Virus record (IMG/VR): IMGVR_UViG_2537561857_000027
Direction: 5' to 3' (one strand)
DNA from: a virus
Lineage: Duplodnaviria; Heunggongvirae; Uroviricota; Caudoviricetes
Length of the DNA: 12,985 nt
Under the pieces are notes generated by a model that was given only the letters and a program-made list of their open reading frames with translations, had not been told where the DNA came from and ran no database searches. The position numbers and the translations under genes were made by a program. Positions within the stretch are counted from its first letter, which is position 1. Each line of letters opens with the position of its first letter. Below are positions 394 through 10,224 of the stretch, piece after piece.

Positions 394-461
394 CAACAAT
401 CGCCTCGTAATAGCTGTGGTTACATACCCGTAATTCGGAGATGCACTGGATGAAAGTTAAA

Positions 462-600
462 CTACGAAAATTTCGTAGTTCTGACCCTCTTAAAGATGGT
501 TTGTTATCAGCCCTCAGAAGTGAGGGATGTAAAAATCAGGGCTGGCTGGCTGGCCCGGTCTGGATGGTTTACATACCCCGATATCGGGGATGTACAAATC
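462..600. other. Cluster of three GC-rich hairpins upstream of the Q-like gene: CTACGAAAATTTCGTAG (462-478), CCCTCAgaagTGAGGG (511-526), CCCCGATATCGGGG (576-589); the last two are each followed by ATGTA(A/C)AAATC
   Basis: Inverted repeats read directly from the sequence. The third is embedded in a longer imperfect palindrome ACATACCCCGATATCGGGGATGTA. None is followed by a T-run on the plus strand. Function unknown. Confidence 0.4.
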
Positions 601-779
601 ATGGTTTTACGACTGGTGAATTTGAACAACTCAAATAATCGAGTAAATGAGCAATAAACATCAATGGGTTAGAGTAATACCACGCAGCAGTGTTTCTCAA
701 CGCCCACCACTGACGGAAGTTGAATAAACTGAGCAGGCCAAAGCTCAAAAATGAGCTTTGGAACAATATCAACAAGTTA

Positions 780-975
780 CCGCCGTAACCGCTCCGGTTT
801 CCCCCAATGGGGGATTTCGAAAGAATCAACGGCTTAGGCCTTAATCATCTGCGTAATCATAATGATTATTCAGCCAGCGCAATTTTGCGCTTTGCTTTAA
901 TCTCAATGAGTTACCACGCCGACTTCCTCAAATTGAGGATTGTGGAAGAATCAACGGGTTAAGCCTAAATCAAAG
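780..975. repeat. Two degenerate tandem units about 125 bp apart, each a short GC hairpin (CCCCCAATGGGGG 800-812; CCTCAAATTGAGG 925-937) followed by the box GAAGAATCAACGGNTTARGCCTNAATCA (818-846; 945-972)
   Basis: Direct comparison of the two units. Both boxes contain a perfect match to the IHF core consensus WATCAANNNNTTR (AATCAACGGCTTA 823-835; AATCAACGGGTTA 949-961). No convincing ORF on either strand. Confidence 0.45.
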
Positions 976-1146
976 TTTTCGTGTGTATGTATTCGAAGGC
1001 TGATTTTCATGAAAATACCTTTAGAAGGGGTTTTGAAATTCCTCATTTGTGGCTCTGGCTTATGCCACTGATACGGAGCCGCGTTCTGTCGCTGCTCCTG
1101 CCGTCTCCTGACCACCATATGTTCCACCGTGTACAGCGTGCTCAGT

Positions 1147-1170
1147 AAAAACCACAGATTCGTGGTTTTT
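1147..1170. terminator. Candidate bidirectional intrinsic terminator (AAAA-ACCAC-agattc-GTGGT-TTTTT)
   Basis: 5-bp stem with 6-nt loop, flanked by an A-run upstream and a T-run downstream, so it is a hairpin plus U-tract on either strand. It lies about 70 bp downstream of the stop of the minus-strand 57-aa gene. The stem is short, so this is weak. Confidence 0.35.
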
Positions 1171-1239
1171 CTCCGGCTCTTTTTGCGACTCGTTTAAAAC
1201 TGGTCACAAGGTTACTTAAAGTTACTCAGTTCGACACCA

Positions 1240-1413
1240 TCACGGCACACCAGCCACAACACGCGCATAATTTTCAGTGGTCACGCTGTCCGGCTGCGTG
1301 GACTCCTGTTTGCGCTGGCGTTCTCTCTGCTCTTCAATCATGAGGATTAACTCGCGCTCCTCCTGTTCTTCAATAATCCCGTGAATTACCTCTGTTGGTG
1401 AACGGTCGGTCAT
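1240..1413 (-). CDS. Hypothetical small acidic protein, 57 aa (MTDRSPTEVIHGIIEEQEERELILMIEEQRERQRKQESTQPDSVTTENYARVVAGVP)
   Basis: Hand translation; below the 60-aa cut-off of the ORF track. ATG at 1413-1411 is preceded by a G-rich SD-like stretch (GGGGG, about 4 nt spacer); stop at 1240-1242. Its first 30 bp are duplicated at 4390-4419. Flanked on both sides by GGTTACTT(A/T)AAGT(T/A)ACT sites (1210-1227 and 1465-1483). Confidence 0.4.
   Translation of the reverse strand: MTDRSPTEVIHGIIEEQEERELILMIEEQRERQRKQESTQPDSVTTENYARVVAGVP
1382..1411. repeat. 30-bp perfect direct repeat, copy 1 (TGAATTACCTCTGTTGGTGAACGGTCGGTC); partner at 4390-4419
   Basis: Exact 30/30 identity read from the sequence; flanking bases differ on both sides. 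Copy 1 covers codons 2-10 of the 57-aa gene. Confidence 0.9.
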
Positions 1414-1550
1414 CGGTCCCCCTGTGAGTTGCGGTTATGCTCTGTAAAAACGTTCATTTTTGTAGGTTACTTTAAGTAACTTACAAAAAATCGATCATCA
1501 CGTATCGGTTTCGTTTTGCGCTTCCTGTTGCGTTTCGTTTTTGAGAAAAA

Positions 1551-1756
1551 TGCGCATTTTTTTGCGCACTTTTTGAGGTGGTCTATCCCCCTGCAAGCCG
1601 CGTCGTTACTGGCTTTGTGCTGGTGGTCAGCATAATCGATTTTGTGATCGGTTTTATGATCGAATTTGCGCAGTTTTCTGCGCACTTTTCGGGGAATTGT
1701 TGCCCTACGGAATGTGTGCATCAGGAGCGATATGTAACTGACTTTGTAACTGACTT
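1551..1756. promoter_or_regulatory. Operator-like repeat block: two pairs of the palindromic hexamer TGCGCA at 12-bp centre spacing (1551-1556/1563-1568 and 1667-1672/1679-1684), plus two directly adjacent 12-bp repeats TGTAACTGACTT (1733-1744, 1745-1756)
   Basis: Read directly from the sequence. The block sits in a 630-bp stretch (1414-2067) with no convincing ORF, between the restriction gene and the 57-aa gene. A regulatory function is inferred only. Confidence 0.35.
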
Positions 1757-2045
1757 ACTGTCAGCCGCAATCACTACGGGTAATTGCAGATTTCTTACGC
1801 GATTTTAAAATCAGGCCTTCCGTTGTGACATTTCTTTGATGTGCATGAGGTATATTGCTCGCAAGTTATCTTTCGCCCATGTCGTCAATAGTTTTACGGC
1901 CTTAATTAGATCGTTAAACGTATCGACATCGCTCAGTCCGATTTGCTTATTTGGGATTTGTGTTATTGATCAGATCTCATAATCTGGATTGAGTTCCCTC
2001 AAATACGAAGTGATCTACTATTCCGAACAGCTATTTAGTCATCAT

Positions 2046-2069
2046 AACCGGGTTTATCCCGGCTTTTTT
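2046..2069 (+). terminator. Candidate plus-strand intrinsic terminator (CCGGG-ttta-CCCGG, then c + TTTTTT)
   Basis: 5-bp GC stem followed by a T6 run on the plus strand only. Its T-run overlaps the stop codon of the convergent minus-strand restriction gene. It implies plus-strand transcription in 1414-2040. Confidence 0.4.
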
Positions 2070-3144
2070 AATGTTTGATGCATTTTTCCATGAAAGAATC
2101 TAAGAATTGATCGGTTATTCCTTGAGGCTTTCGGCGCTCACAAAGAGAATACAATTCTTCTACGGCAGAGTAAGGAAAAAATTTTGTGTCTAGCTCACGA
2201 AATTGTGGTCTATTTGCAAACTCAATTACTTTTTCTCTATATTCATCTGGAGCTACGATTGTCCATCGTATATCTTGCAGACGGGGAGCATAATCACAGA
2301 AGTTCTTCATACGTGCTAAACCCCTTATTATTCCGGTACTATGCTCGATCTCCATCACGGCAGGCATCAATTTACCATTTCTAAACCAGATGCAATCTAT
2401 CAATCTTGCGCCAGCAATGGCTTCGCTGTAGGAACTTAGGACTTTTTCATTAGACAGACTGTCAATGACACCATCCATTTGAGCGATTGCTTTACCATTG
2501 TATTTTAATCCTCGGTCATTAGCTGCAACCCATGTTCTGTATCCCAGATGATGACCGATTTTTACTAATGCTATCTGGATTTGTGCATGTCTTCTTGATT
2601 CTTCAATAGACATGCCTTCAATTGGACGGATTGTTTCTGAATCAACACTTTGGTATACAACTTCTGTGTTCATCTCTGATATTACAATATTAGTTTTGTA
2701 TTCAGAAAGCTTGCCGTTTTCATGTGGTAAATTCGGTAAGTATATAAGATGCTTGTGGCCTTTTTTAATCGTCTGTTTCGTATTAATAACCTCTAAGCGG
2801 TCGAGTTTACACCAATAAAATTGAGGTGTATGAGCAAGCAAACTTTCAATAACTGAACGAGAGTTATAGCTTGCACCGAATACTCTATCTAAATTGATAG
2901 GCGCATCCTCTTGAATTGCGTTAGCCAAACGCCATAGCATTTGGCTAGATATGCTATCAACTTTGGCATCTCTGAGCGTTTCACCTTTGGTTGGATTGAA
3001 ACGTTTAAAGCGTATTGGGCCTTCTGGTAACTTAATCGAGTCGATAACAATCTTCCCGGCATTACTTTCATTCACATAATCAAACTGCCTGTTTTTGGGT
3101 AGATTTGCTATCGCATTCACAAGATTCATTGCTGTTAAATTCAT
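2068..3144 (-). CDS. Putative Type II restriction endonuclease partner of the adjacent methyltransferase (358 aa); nuclease family not recognisable
   Basis: Long ORF directly downstream of, and overlapping by 65 nt, the C5-methyltransferase gene on the same strand. ATG at 3144 has GGGA 6 nt upstream. The C-terminal region has a possible PD-(D/E)xK-like arrangement (...ARLIDCIWF...PAVMEIEHS...), which is a weak call. The restriction function is inferred from operon context. Confidence 0.5.
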   Translation of the reverse strand: MNLTAMNLVNAIANLPKNRQFDYVNESNAGKIVIDSIKLPEGPIRFKRFNPTKGETLRDAKVDSISSQMLWRLANAIQEDAPINLDRVFGASYNSRSVIESLLAHTPQFYWCKLDRLEVINTKQTIKKGHKHLIYLPNLPHENGKLSEYKTNIVISEMNTEVVYQSVDSETIRPIEGMSIEESRRHAQIQIALVKIGHHLGYRTWVAANDRGLKYNGKAIAQMDGVIDSLSNEKVLSSYSEAIAGARLIDCIWFRNGKLMPAVMEIEHSTGIIRGLARMKNFCDYAPRLQDIRWTIVAPDEYREKVIEFANRPQFRELDTKFFPYSAVEELYSLCERRKPQGITDQFLDSFMEKCIKH

Positions 3145-4219
3145 CTTTTATCCCTAAATGCTCTAATATGGATTTTGCTATGCCTAAAGCCGCAAGGTAA
3201 GGAACACCATTGCCAACAGTTTTAAACATATTTGAAAGAGTCATGTAAGATGGCAATTCGAATTCTTTCGGTAAAGACTGAATGGCAAGTGCTTCTGCAA
3301 CTGTTATTCTACGTGGCTTATATGGATGCAAATGTACTTCATTATTACCGTAAGCAGCTGTTGGAGAATATCTCCAGCGATGAAGACGCTTGTAAGATTT
3401 TTTGCTATCGTCCCCTTCAGCTACAGCTTTAAAGCGAACTAACCCAGCCCTAGCAGTAAACACATGTTTTGCGTTCACATGTTCAGAAACTTTGTTTTTC
3501 CTAAACCAGTAGTCAACAGTTAACTCTTCAGGAAGTGACTCAGGCATTGCCAGTGTTGAGTTCTCAACAAATTCATTCGTAGTTGGCCAATTATGTTCAA
3601 AAGCACTACTATCTGGGTATAATCTTCCACTCCAGTTAAAGATCTTGGTTAGACTTTTATTTTGGAAACCCAACAGAATAATGCGTTCACGGTCTTGCGG
3701 GACTCCGTATTCAATCGAATTTATTAACCTTTCATGAAGGATGTAACCAACGTCCATTAACTGTTTTTTGAGATGCTCAAAAAACTCACGGTGTTTGAGC
3801 GTGCGATAAAGACCTTTGACGTTCTCGAACAAAAAGAAGTCAGGCTTCATCTCAACAATTATATTGATGTAACTTTGAGACAGCTTACCGTTCTCTCCAT
3901 CGCGACCTTTGTTCTTACCTGCAACGGAGAAATCAGGGCACGGTGGGCCACCGATGAAGCCAATTAGTCTTTTTTCTTTCTTGAGAGCTTTAATATTATC
4001 TTTCAACTTATTGTGATCAACTTCCTCGATGCTCTCTTCTGCATATCCAAAACGTGGGATAGGTTTGTTCATCACCGCTCGTGAGTGCTTGTAAGCATCC
4101 ATAAATGGTGGGTGAAATTCATTCACAAAAACCACCTCGTAGCCTGAGTTTTCGAAGCCAAGATCTAGAAAACCTGAGCCGGAAAAGAAAGAGAAGATGG
4201 CGGGTTTAAGTGTGGACAT
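3080..4219 (-). CDS. DNA (cytosine-5)-methyltransferase, Type II R-M modification subunit (379 aa)
   Basis: Canonical m5C-MTase motifs in the correct order: I FSGSGF (FxGxG), IV GGPPCPDFS (catalytic Pro-Cys), VI ENVKGL, VIII QDRERIILLGF, IX RRITVAEALAIQSLP, X GNGVPY. A variable region of about 130 aa lies between VIII and IX. Start ATG at 4219. Confidence 0.9.
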   Translation of the reverse strand: MSTLKPAIFSFFSGSGFLDLGFENSGYEVVFVNEFHPPFMDAYKHSRAVMNKPIPRFGYAEESIEEVDHNKLKDNIKALKKEKRLIGFIGGPPCPDFSVAGKNKGRDGENGKLSQSYINIIVEMKPDFFLFENVKGLYRTLKHREFFEHLKKQLMDVGYILHERLINSIEYGVPQDRERIILLGFQNKSLTKIFNWSGRLYPDSSAFEHNWPTTNEFVENSTLAMPESLPEELTVDYWFRKNKVSEHVNAKHVFTARAGLVRFKAVAEGDDSKKSYKRLHRWRYSPTAAYGNNEVHLHPYKPRRITVAEALAIQSLPKEFELPSYMTLSNMFKTVGNGVPYLAALGIAKSILEHLGIKDEFNSNESCECDSKSTQKQAV

Positions 4220-4248
4220 TTTTTACCTATCGGTGATCGTTGAGTCAT

Positions 4249-4285
4249 GCAAAAACGCCCCTGCATCTTACCAGATGAAAGGGGC
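4249..4285 (-). terminator. Minus-strand intrinsic terminator between ssb and the R-M operon (GCCCCT...AGGGGC stem with inner CATC/GATG pairing, then T-run)
   Basis: Plus-strand 4257-4262 GCCCCT pairs with 4280-4285 AGGGGC; the plus-strand A5 at 4251-4255 is the U-tract after the hairpin on the minus transcript. Confidence 0.5.
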
Positions 4286-8390: not shown

Positions 8391-8575
8391 TACTGCACCC
8401 CCTTAATTTCATGAACGGCGTGGATAATTACGCCGGATAAACCGGCTTTAGCTGATTTGTTAATTACTGTGCTGATTGCAGCCTGGACGTTTTCGGCCTT
8501 CACGTTCTGCGTGATGCCAACGGTATAGCCGCGTGCATTAACGGCACGGGAAAAAACACGGAAGGTTTTAAGCAT
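8390..8575 (-). CDS. Hypothetical protein, 61 aa
   Basis: Strong SD: GGAGG with 6-nt spacer before the ATG at 8575. Confidence 0.55.
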   Translation of the reverse strand: MLKTFRVFSRAVNARGYTVGITQNVKAENVQAAISTVINKSAKAGLSGVIIHAVHEIKGVQ

Positions 8576-8738
8576 GAGTCACCTCCTGACGGATACGGGC
8601 GACAAAAATCAGATGTGCGTGCGGCAGCTGCGCGCGTGCTTCGCGCTCAGTGGCAGCGGTAACGGTGAATATTGCAATGCTACCTGTCAGGCACTGCATA
8701 AAGCGCCAGACAAAGTAAGGGCGTGCGGATACAGCCAT
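8568..8738 (-). CDS. Hypothetical small protein, 56 aa, with a hydrophobic core (LTGSIAIFTVTAAT); proposed real 3' part of the 504-aa track ORF
   Basis: Internal ATG at 8738 is preceded by GAGGAG with an 8-nt spacer, and codon usage improves from here to the stop. Its end overlaps the start of the next gene by 8 nt. Start assignment is by inference. Confidence 0.35.
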   Translation of the reverse strand: MAVSARPYFVWRFMQCLTGSIAIFTVTAATEREARAQLPHAHLIFVARIRQEVTHA

Positions 8739-8903
8739 GTGAAAGGCTCCTCTGACTTTGGGATTATACCCACCGCCGGAGGTGGTAAGCTCGCTGGCGG
8801 TGGACTGTACAGGGTTACCACAACTGGCGTTAGAGGAAACCAGCCCGACCGAAGTCGGCCCCATACAGCCCACCATTGTTGAGGTGTGCGTGTGCGCCGA
8901 TAC

Positions 8904-8924
8904 AAAAAAAGACGCTGGCGCGTC
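8904..8924 (-). terminator. Minus-strand intrinsic terminator (GACGC-tggc-GCGTC followed by T7 on the minus transcript)
   Basis: Plus-strand A7 at 8904-8910 precedes the hairpin at 8911-8924; an outer CGATACA/TGTATCG stem (8897-8903 with 8926-8932) encloses it. Confidence 0.5.
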
Positions 8925-9207
8925 GTGTATCGCCTCTAACTCCAGCGGGGTGGTAATCCCGATCCCCGTTTTATAAGGGATAGCCTCAGTATATGCCGCT
9001 TTTTTGCTTAAGTGGTCGGATGTGTTGCGAGAGAAGTTTGTGCGAAAAATACCTGCGTTTTCTTTGAAAGCACATAATAACATCACGTTATTTATGTTTA
9101 TGCAGTGTGTCGCAAAGCGACCTGAATCATCACGCAAATTACAACCATAAAAAATACCTGCGCTGTGATATGAGGTACTACAGCGCACCGCTTTACGGGT
9201 ACAGACA

Positions 9208-9387
9208 ATGACAAATGAAGAACTACAGGAAATCGCATTATCCATACTTGAGCGACAGCGCGAAAAAGTACGCCTGGAACGCGAGTCTTTGCTTAATCCC
9301 TCTCCTCTCACCAGACCAAAACGATTTGCGCTTGAGGCATTTCTGGACAAATACCCACGGCGATTAATCTCGCCTAAAAACCGATAG
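9208..9387 (+). CDS. Small basic/helical protein A, 59 aa (MTNEELQEIALSILERQREKVRLERESLLNPSPLTRPKRFALEAFLDKYPRRLISPKNR)
   Basis: Hand translation; below the track cut-off. Shares a C-terminal motif K(R/K)FALE(A/E)FL(D/R)KYPRRL...KNR with ORF B, and a similar 45-nt upstream region. Composition is protein-like. The coding strand is not proven (see findings). Confidence 0.4.
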   Translation: MTNEELQEIALSILERQREKVRLERESLLNPSPLTRPKRFALEAFLDKYPRRLISPKNR

Positions 9388-9483
9388 CGATCCGCTTTTG
9401 CTTCTCTGACTCCATAAAACGAATAACAACCATCAGCGCCGTGGTGTGAGGTGCTGCGTCGCTCCGCTGTACAGGAAATAAGT

Positions 9484-9762
9484 ATGGATTTACCACCAGA
9501 AGATGAGAAATTTTTACGACAACTACAACACCAACTACTCATGGATGCCATTGTCGAGCAGCAAACAGGGAGCAGCCCCATTGATTCATCGCTGAATAAA
9601 AAGGCCGCTTCCCGTTTTATTGAAAACAGGATAAGACGAGGAAAAACATGTGACGACGAGTCAAAGGCATCGCATACAAGAGATAAAAAATTTGCACTTG
9701 AAGAGTTTCTCAGGAAATACCCACGGCGGCTAAAAGCAACCAAAAATCGCCCGCCAGGCTGA
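9484..9762 (+). CDS. Small protein B, 92 aa, paralogue of protein A
   Basis: The track ORF 9451..9762 begins at GTG; the ATG at 9484 has AGGAA 6 nt upstream. C-terminal motif shared with protein A. Confidence 0.45.
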   Translation: MDLPPEDEKFLRQLQHQLLMDAIVEQQTGSSPIDSSLNKKAASRFIENRIRRGKTCDDESKASHTRDKKFALEEFLRKYPRRLKATKNRPPG

Positions 9763-9765
9763 TAG

Positions 9766-10076
9766 CATTGTCCACCAGCCTCAGATATGGCATTGTGGAT
9801 AATGCGCTTGATTTCCTTTATCTCCACTGGCGACCCTTTCGTGGTCGCCTTTGTTTTGCCTGCCATTCCTGCATCATGCGGATATTCGCGCCGTACAGGG
9901 CCACCAGCGCGATAATTTGATAAAGCCTCCTTCTGATAATGCTTAACGTGTTTCATGCGCTCAGCGGCGAAATGGCTCACGATATGGCGCATGTAATCAG
10001 CATGGTTGATGCTCACCTGTGCGAACTTATCCGCAGTATCGATGTACAGGGCGGCAGCGTTGCGGATGTCAGGCAT
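9766..10076 (-). CDS. Hypothetical protein (MPDIRNAAALYIDTADKFAQVSINHADYMRHIVSHFAAERMKHVKHYQKEAL...); start well supported, 3' end unresolved
   Basis: ATG at 10076 with GGAG about 9 nt upstream; it overlaps the stop of the upstream 51-aa gene by 8 nt (ATGCCTGA). The first 50 or so codons use E. coli-preferred codons (ATC, CTG, CGC, AAC, TTC). The frame has no stop until 8568. The lower coordinate given here is arbitrary. Confidence 0.3.
9829..9858 (+). terminator. Plus-strand intrinsic terminator (GGCGACC-ctttcgt-GGTCGCC followed by TTTGTTTTG)
   Basis: Perfect 7-bp GC-rich stem followed by a T-rich tract, about 70 bp downstream of ORF B. Confidence 0.6.
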
Positions 10077-10224
10077 GTTCACGTTCTCCCAGGCGACGGA
10101 CCAGCCAGCGTTGGGCTAATTCGGTGAGACGTTCTTTACGTTCTGGCGTTGGCATATCCATATCCAGTAGCGCACAGTTACGGCTTTCCAGATACGCGAG
10201 CAACGCCAGTTGATCAGCGGTCAT
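10069..10224 (-). CDS. Hypothetical small protein, 51 aa (MTADQLALLAYLESRNCALLDMDMPTPERKERLTELAQRWLVRRLGEREHA)
   Basis: Internal ATG at 10224 overlaps the stop of the Rha-family gene (ATGA); the track's longer 81-aa version would overlap that gene. Confidence 0.45.
   Translation of the reverse strand: MTADQLALLAYLESRNCALLDMDMPTPERKERLTELAQRWLVRRLGEREHA

Follow-up and report, generated by a model that had tools for sequence, protein, structure and literature searches.

What does the 358-amino-acid (aa) protein encoded directly downstream of a 5-methylcytosine (m5C) DNA methyltransferase gene in IMG/VR virus record IMGVR_UViG_2537561857_000027 do? The window, that is, the whole stretch of 12,985 nucleotides (nt) that we analysed, carries the two genes on the same strand, one running into the other. 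A first-pass annotation, made by eye from the letters, had called the methyltransferase unambiguous, had found no recognizable nuclease signature in its partner and had suggested that the partner could be a new restriction-enzyme family or a non-classical effector. We find that the partner, hereafter R, is very probably the restriction endonuclease of an NmeDI-type Type II restriction–modification (R–M) cassette, carried as cargo on a P4-like integrative island of Escherichia coli. The methyltransferase is referred to as M. The two open reading frames (ORFs) are:

2068–3144, minus strand: restriction endonuclease gene (R), NmeDI family, 358 aa (PDLC03534 match, homologues with PF27126, near-identical RefSeq protein)
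3080–4219, minus strand: m5C DNA methyltransferase gene (M), M.NmeDI-like, 379 aa (PF00145, TIGR00675 and PADLOC MTase_II matches)

R belongs to a known restriction-enzyme family

The profile search that the earlier annotation had suggested as a check gave a clear answer. R matches the PADLOC Type II restriction endonuclease model (REase_II, PDLC03534) end to end, residues 2–356 aligning with model positions 5–350/351 at E = 7.3e-124. A search of 5.8 billion proteins returned 1,704 homologues of R, and PF27126, a family newer than the local Pfam copy, is present on all 120 among the matches listed. Their source names include ‘restriction endonuclease’ and ‘type II restriction enzyme’, and the name ‘Type II restriction enzyme NmeDIP’ is given to one homologue (P0117), which is 56% identical. 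RefSeq protein WP_001308314.1, ‘type II restriction enzyme NmeDI-related protein’, shares 97.8% aa identity with R. By sequence, then, R is a member of the NmeDI family over its full length and an orthologue within a known, already annotated restriction-enzyme family, not the first of a new nuclease family.

The genomic setting agrees with this assignment. When one genome per species was scanned, relatives of R turned up at 274 loci, of which the best 80 were fetched; Neisseria is absent from these best 80 of 274. A 351-aa representative (P0150) is unnamed. Of the 80 related loci, which come from many phyla, 78 have a homologous m5C methyltransferase (50–93% identity to M) directly upstream of the endonuclease gene, in the same orientation and usually overlapping it. 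The window has the same arrangement, with its cognate methyltransferase immediately upstream of R and overlapping it. Together with the full-length PDLC03534 match, this bears out the earlier view that the 358-aa protein is the restriction partner of the methyltransferase.

Searches with R as a single sequence against local Pfam-A, NCBIfam and PDB sequences returned only noise, as did a 35-sequence R profile against PDB sequences. The first-pass annotation was thus right that no classical nuclease signature is visible at the sequence level, and these blank results explain why it recognized nothing; they are no evidence of novelty. The residues that define the family are all in R: 65 columns are invariant in the 35-sequence alignment, and 59 positions are at least 99% conserved among 114 sequences.

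For a restriction enzyme, R belongs to an unusually well-conserved family, with a mean column identity of 64% (35-sequence alignment) and identities of at least 51% across Enterobacteria, Elusimicrobia, Saccharimonadales, Collierbacteria, Cyanobacteria, Bacteroidota, Bacillota and Actinomycetota. RefSeq names R inconsistently: the exact protein, WP_032149176.1, is labelled ‘hypothetical protein’ in some genomes, whereas WP_001308314.1 carries the NmeDI-related name (records NZ_AP045179.1 and NZ_CP082357.1). The ‘hypothetical’ labels can be corrected.

The partner methyltransferase

M matches PF00145 (E = 3.7e-53, spanning 3–323/324), TIGR00675 (E = 1e-47) and the PADLOC model MTase_II, PDLC03355 (E = 3e-164). 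The motifs FSGSGF (residue 12), PCPDFS (93), ENV (132), QDRER (175) and GNGVP (336) make up the complete C-5 cytosine methyltransferase set I, IV (PC), VI (ENV), VIII (QxRxR) and X (GN), so that the identification of this gene as a methyltransferase was sound. One motif had attracted comment:

3926–3943, minus strand: motif IV, PCPDFS, residues 93–98, with catalytic Cys94 (placed by motif position; found in 75 of 79 partner methyltransferases)

The earlier reader had flagged PCPDFS as a departure from the usual PCQ. The hexapeptide is there, but it is no oddity: it occurs in 75 of the 79 partner methyltransferases of related loci and stands in for PCQ in this subfamily.

M also matches DruM and DrmMII, and membership of a Druantia or DISARM system was considered and rejected, as the partner genes DruE/F/G and DrmA/B/C are absent from the window. 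Its other ORFs encode SSB, a DUF927 protein, DUF4222, an Ash-like protein, Rha, AlpA, an integrase and Q. The DruM match (E = 7.7e-140) is weaker than the MTase_II match (E = 3.1e-164), and the DruM and DrmMII matches reflect general methyltransferase similarity.

Overlap of the two genes

Three further features describe how the genes are joined and how R ends:

3080–3144, unstranded: overlap of the M 3′ end and the R 5′ end, 65 nt (ORF coordinates)
3151–3155, minus strand: Shine–Dalgarno-like AGGGA, 6 nt 5′ of the R start codon, within the M coding sequence (read from the sequence; putative function)
2048–2062, unstranded: GC-rich hairpin CCGGG-N5-CCCGG directly past the R stop codon (terminator-like scan; weak evidence)

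The overlap had been described as unusually long. It does measure 65 nt, but such a length is ordinary in this family: across 78 related loci the M–R overlap has a median of 50 nt and extremes of −19 and +128 nt, and it reaches at least 40 nt in 44 of them. Sixty-five nucleotides is the second commonest value and is also seen in Elusimicrobia, Ignavibacteriales and Saccharimonadales. Because both are common across related loci, the overlap and the PCPDFS motif are family traits. Only M residues 359–379 fall inside the overlap, beyond the conserved methyltransferase domain (profile matches stop at 352 and 358); the overlap is simply the M frame continuing into R until it meets a stop.

On sequence context, the R start codon is the ATG at 3144, which we take as genuine because T4 and A5 are conserved across phyla and AGGGA stands 6 nt upstream. 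Many database copies of R are called from the second ATG, giving a 353-aa protein. The hairpin past the stop codon was called by the scan on the plus strand with a T-run; on the strand of R itself the T-run that follows is poor. Scans of the window for an internal R promoter or a terminator gave nothing better than the shuffled expectation.

Predicted domain build and candidate active site

If R is a restriction endonuclease, where does it bind and where does it cut? The features on which the following argument turns are:

2677–3144, minus strand: R N-terminal domain, residues 1–156, presumed sequence-recognition domain
2611–2676, minus strand: linker, residues 157–178, low-confidence and poorly conserved (predicted local distance difference test score (pLDDT) below 50 at 157–164, low-confidence blocks around; alignment columns variable and gapped)
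2071–2610, minus strand: R C-terminal nuclease domain, residues 179–358, predicted PD-(D/E)xK fold
2341–2397, minus strand: putative catalytic motif D250-x14-E265-x-E267(-H268) (conservation and model strands; putative catalytic role)
2515–2520, minus strand: invariant N209-D210 after the first core strand, possible further metal ligand (100% in 114 members; putative role)

Structure prediction was another check that had been suggested. The full-length AlphaFold (AF2) model of R, built on 35 sequences, has two domains (pLDDT 82.7, predicted template modelling score 0.54), but fold matches to its C-terminal domain are weak (best Foldseek E 0.05). Nearly all fold matches to the N-terminal domain are DNA-binding winged-helix proteins, SdaI with its winged-helix domain among them, and the N-terminal domain of R is predicted to be weakly winged-helix-like and specific to the NmeDI family. 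In the model it is joined by a predicted flexible linker to a C-terminal domain predicted to be a nuclease of the PD-(D/E)xK type. Members of that superfamily are expected to have a core of one helix, three strands, a second helix and a further strand, with acidic residues where strand two begins and within strand three, and R may have such a core. The nearest solved folds are predicted to be Type IIS cleavage domains, which would fit cutting at a distance from the recognition site. A fold survey by Orlowski and Bujnicki in 2008 had placed the NmeDIP family (46 members) in PD-(D/E)XK at the lowest reliability level (PMC2441816).

The earlier annotation had noted a D…EIEH arrangement near residues 250–280 as the only hint of a nuclease. 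Most of this hint stands up. All 114 family members have D210, D250, E265 and E267. The hint falls on D250, E265 and E267, the only acidic residues without variation in the predicted core of the nuclease, and another 14 proteins, of which 13 are distant and have unrelated N-termini, share these three without exception. D210 and R278 are likewise invariant in the distant fusion proteins. In the model D250 opens strand 251–254, E265 lies within strand 262–266 and E267 comes just after it. The histidine drops out: H268 varies. Because the three acidic residues are invariant in the family and in the fusions while H268 varies, D250…E265-x-E267 is likely to be the catalytic core, a D…ExE variant of the motif.

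Such a variant has a parallel in BamHI, the active site of which (D94/E111/E113) also has Glu at the usual Lys position of (D/E)xK; BamHI belongs to another family and is not among the listed fold matches. With the Type IIS enzymes FokI and BspD6I, R would share the division into a recognition domain and a distinct cleavage domain acting away from the site. The differences are that R has a D…ExE motif rather than D…DxK, that an NmeDI-type site is palindromic and cut on both sides, that the recognition domain is much smaller and that the family profile has no detectable sequence similarity to the FokI cleavage domain. SdaI, which combines winged-helix and PD-(D/E)xK domains, differs in its weak scores, its lack of sequence similarity and its other recognition site. 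The tetrameric Type IIF enzymes Cfr10I, Bse634I and NgoMIV (RCCGGY/GCCGGC) are single-domain proteins that cut within the site; the NmeDI authors reported that R.NmeDI has no significant sequence homology to R.Cfr10I or R.BsrFI (PMC2095814).

No structure has been solved for the NmeDI family. The predicted build, a small recognition domain and a Type IIS-like D…ExE domain, would give a testable rationale for double-sided cleavage. This structural rationale and the wider spread of the nuclease module, described below, are only mildly new. As a discovery the enzyme itself amounts to little, the family having been known since its characterization in 2007 and near-identical proteins being already named NmeDI-related in databases.

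Proposed mechanism and specificity

The founding member offers a template for how the window pair could work. R.NmeDI of Neisseria meningitidis (GenBank AJ238948), purified and characterized by Kwiatek and Piekarowicz in 2007, is a Mg2+-dependent enzyme of 351 aa that recognizes RCCGGY, cuts 12/7 on both sides and releases a 25-bp fragment; it is a tetramer and requires two sites (PMC2095814). Its gene, nmeDIR, overlaps nmeDIM by nine codons, and the specificities of the two proteins differ, with RCCGGB for M.NmeDI and RCCGGY for the endonuclease (PMC2095814). NmeDI has been described as a symmetric Type IIS enzyme (Pingoud et al. 2014, PMC4081073). The window pair shares with this system its protein family, as judged from profile models and database naming, a similar endonuclease length (358 and 351 aa) and a separate upstream m5C methyltransferase in the same orientation with overlapping genes. 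It differs in its place, an E. coli P4-like island rather than the Neisseria locus between pheS and pheT, which includes a Vsr gene (PMC7973814), and in its overlap of 65 nt rather than nine codons.

By analogy with NmeDI, M would shield host RCCGG(B/Y) sites through C5-methylation, and the N-terminal domain of R would bind RCCGGY that is unmethylated. R would form a tetramer bridging two sites and would cut 12/7 outside the palindrome on both sides, excising a fragment of about 25 bp. Catalysis would depend on Mg2+ held by D250, E265 and E267, with Glu in the usual Lys position, and possibly by D210. The gene overlap would make translation of R follow that of M, favouring methylation before restriction.

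Several points weigh against reading R as a second NmeDI. What ties R to R.NmeDI is a set of profile models together with the names in source databases and in RefSeq, not a pairwise alignment, and the RCCGGY specificity, 12/7 geometry and tetramer are transferred from NmeDI by analogy. R has no sequence-level similarity to any solved structure in the single-sequence and profile searches of PDB, and aligning the family profile with the FokI cleavage domain by hhalign gave a probability of 0.1 with a manually entered FokI sequence. No Vsr gene adjoins the cassette in the window, unlike in the Neisseria system and in 17 of the 81 fetched loci (L001–L081), which have a Vsr gene beside the cassette. 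Site avoidance was tried as a test of specificity and rejected. The window holds 2 RCCGGY sites against 10.8 ± 3.2 expected, together with 0 YCCGGR sites; in 76 non-enterobacterial loci the observed/expected ratios of RCCGGY and YCCGGR are 0.75 and 0.78, an equal depletion that says nothing about specificity because it reflects general palindrome avoidance.

The CCGG sites of the window are themselves skewed. Of 37 such sites, 35 stand in a non-palindromic RCCGGR/YCCGGY context, with 2 in RCCGGY and 0 in YCCGGR, and TCCGGT alone occurs 14 times. The skew is stronger in the window than in the neighbouring chromosome (L001 1–10000) and may reflect codon or strand bias together with palindrome avoidance.

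The best placed alternative, though unlikely, is that R is an NmeDI-family enzyme with another recognition sequence or cleavage geometry, such as another CCGG-containing site or a cut within the site, and that the transfer of RCCGGY and 12/7 is wrong. Identity to family members outside Enterobacteria is only about 51–65%, and even in Neisseria the two proteins of the pair differ in specificity (PMC2095814). E. coli MRE600 has RCCGGY m5C methylation (PMC4825418), but the 43 complete E. coli genomes that carry the cassette do not include this strain, so that the methylome link that we sought there gave no support; a link through the ST95 strain SF-166 likewise failed. Against a changed specificity, the presumed recognition domain (mean column identity 62%, 22 invariant columns) matches the nuclease domain in its conservation; R and its partner methyltransferase vary together at every locus; and neither the length of the linker nor the order of the domains changes within the family.

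It is very unlikely that R is an inactive relic beside a solitary methyltransferase. The island is partly decayed, with frameshifted Rha-family and integrase genes and a KilA-N fragment in a near-identical E. coli record, and it has no Vsr gene. The R ORF, by contrast, is full length and retains all 65 invariant columns of the 35-sequence alignment as well as every one of the 59 positions with at least 99% conservation among 114 members; the exact R protein is present on 306 contigs, and the M–R pair is intact in the 43 complete E. coli genomes, from several lineages and at 100–69% nucleotide identity.

The proposal of a new restriction-enzyme family, or of a non-classical effector unrelated to known nucleases, draws on the noise in the local Pfam-A, NCBIfam and PDB searches and on the ‘hypothetical protein’ label in some RefSeq genomes, and is scarcely credible beside the full-length Type II endonuclease match, PF27126 on all 120 listed homologues, the NmeDI-related RefSeq name, a family already listed and fold-assigned (PMC2441816) and a founding member characterized biochemically in 2007 (PMC2095814).

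A predicted nuclease module shared with other proteins

Does the NmeDI-type cleavage domain occur outside this family? A profile of the C-terminal domain matched 1,192 cluster representatives at E ≤ 0.001 and only 56 at E ≤ 1e-30. The stronger tier of 56 is NmeDI-like. The weaker tier includes proteins with the domain on the C-terminal side of TPR repeats, of Swt1-like HEPN or of Mrr_N and, weakly, of EVE or SRA. Because D210, D250, E265 and E267 are invariant in the TPR, Swt1-like HEPN and Mrr_N fusions, the domain behaves as a portable cleavage module. We tentatively propose, as a possibility that falls somewhat short of an even chance, that enzymes of the NmeDI family carry as their C-terminal domain a portable D…ExE nuclease module, which the local (2025) Pfam does not recognize and which has recombined with TPR, Swt1-like HEPN, Mrr_N and, weakly, EVE/SRA N-termini. 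If so, the module would be a common cleavage cassette linking defence nucleases, the modification-dependent (Type IV-like) ones among them, with a Type II system, and would give a structural account of how a reader of palindromes cuts on both sides outside its site.

The four acidic residues are conserved in the fusion proteins P0217, P0252, P0247, P0219, P0226 and P0232. These proteins may be modification-dependent or other defence nucleases.

Island context and mobility

The window is 99.9–100% identical to an E. coli chromosomal island that adjoins tRNA-Gly and contains an integrase, AlpA, a Rha-family regulator, a C4 antisense RNA, DUF4222, a DUF927 protein, SSB and a Q antiterminator. M–R pairs of the NmeDI family occur in 43 of 5,426 complete E. 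coli genomes, at nucleotide identities from 100% down to 69%. The R–M cassette is mobile defence cargo that moves between defence islands, and E. coli carries it as such on different islands.

The G+C content of the cassette (window 1750–4250) is 38–40%, compared with 45–58% elsewhere in the window. In other E. coli strains a cassette at 95% nucleotide identity (L082 6001–8152) lies elsewhere on the chromosome, near tRNA-Leu, yjgR and ahr, and at this tRNA-Leu site it is close to a gene for a ‘phosphorothioated DNA-binding restriction endonuclease’.

Two other parts of the window deserve mention. Between the R and Q antiterminator genes (window 400–2067) there is no ORF of at least 100 aa, and the matching RefSeq record has in this interval nothing but a KilA-N pseudogene fragment of 81 nt and a hypothetical gene of 57 aa; the interval looks like decayed island DNA. 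The C4 antisense RNA (Rfam RF01695, 77.7 bits) at 8793–8880 on the minus strand lies inside a 504-aa ORF at 8568–10082, also on the minus strand, which RefSeq names ‘host cell division inhibitor Icd-like protein’. The sole Pfam match of this ORF, Phage_ASH at aa 364–450 (nt 8733–8993), overlies the RNA gene, and its first ~360 aa, in which RRGY(F/L)xRNxSSAN recurs, do not look like protein. We regard the ORF as a probable over-call spanning an immunity RNA region of the P1/P4 type.
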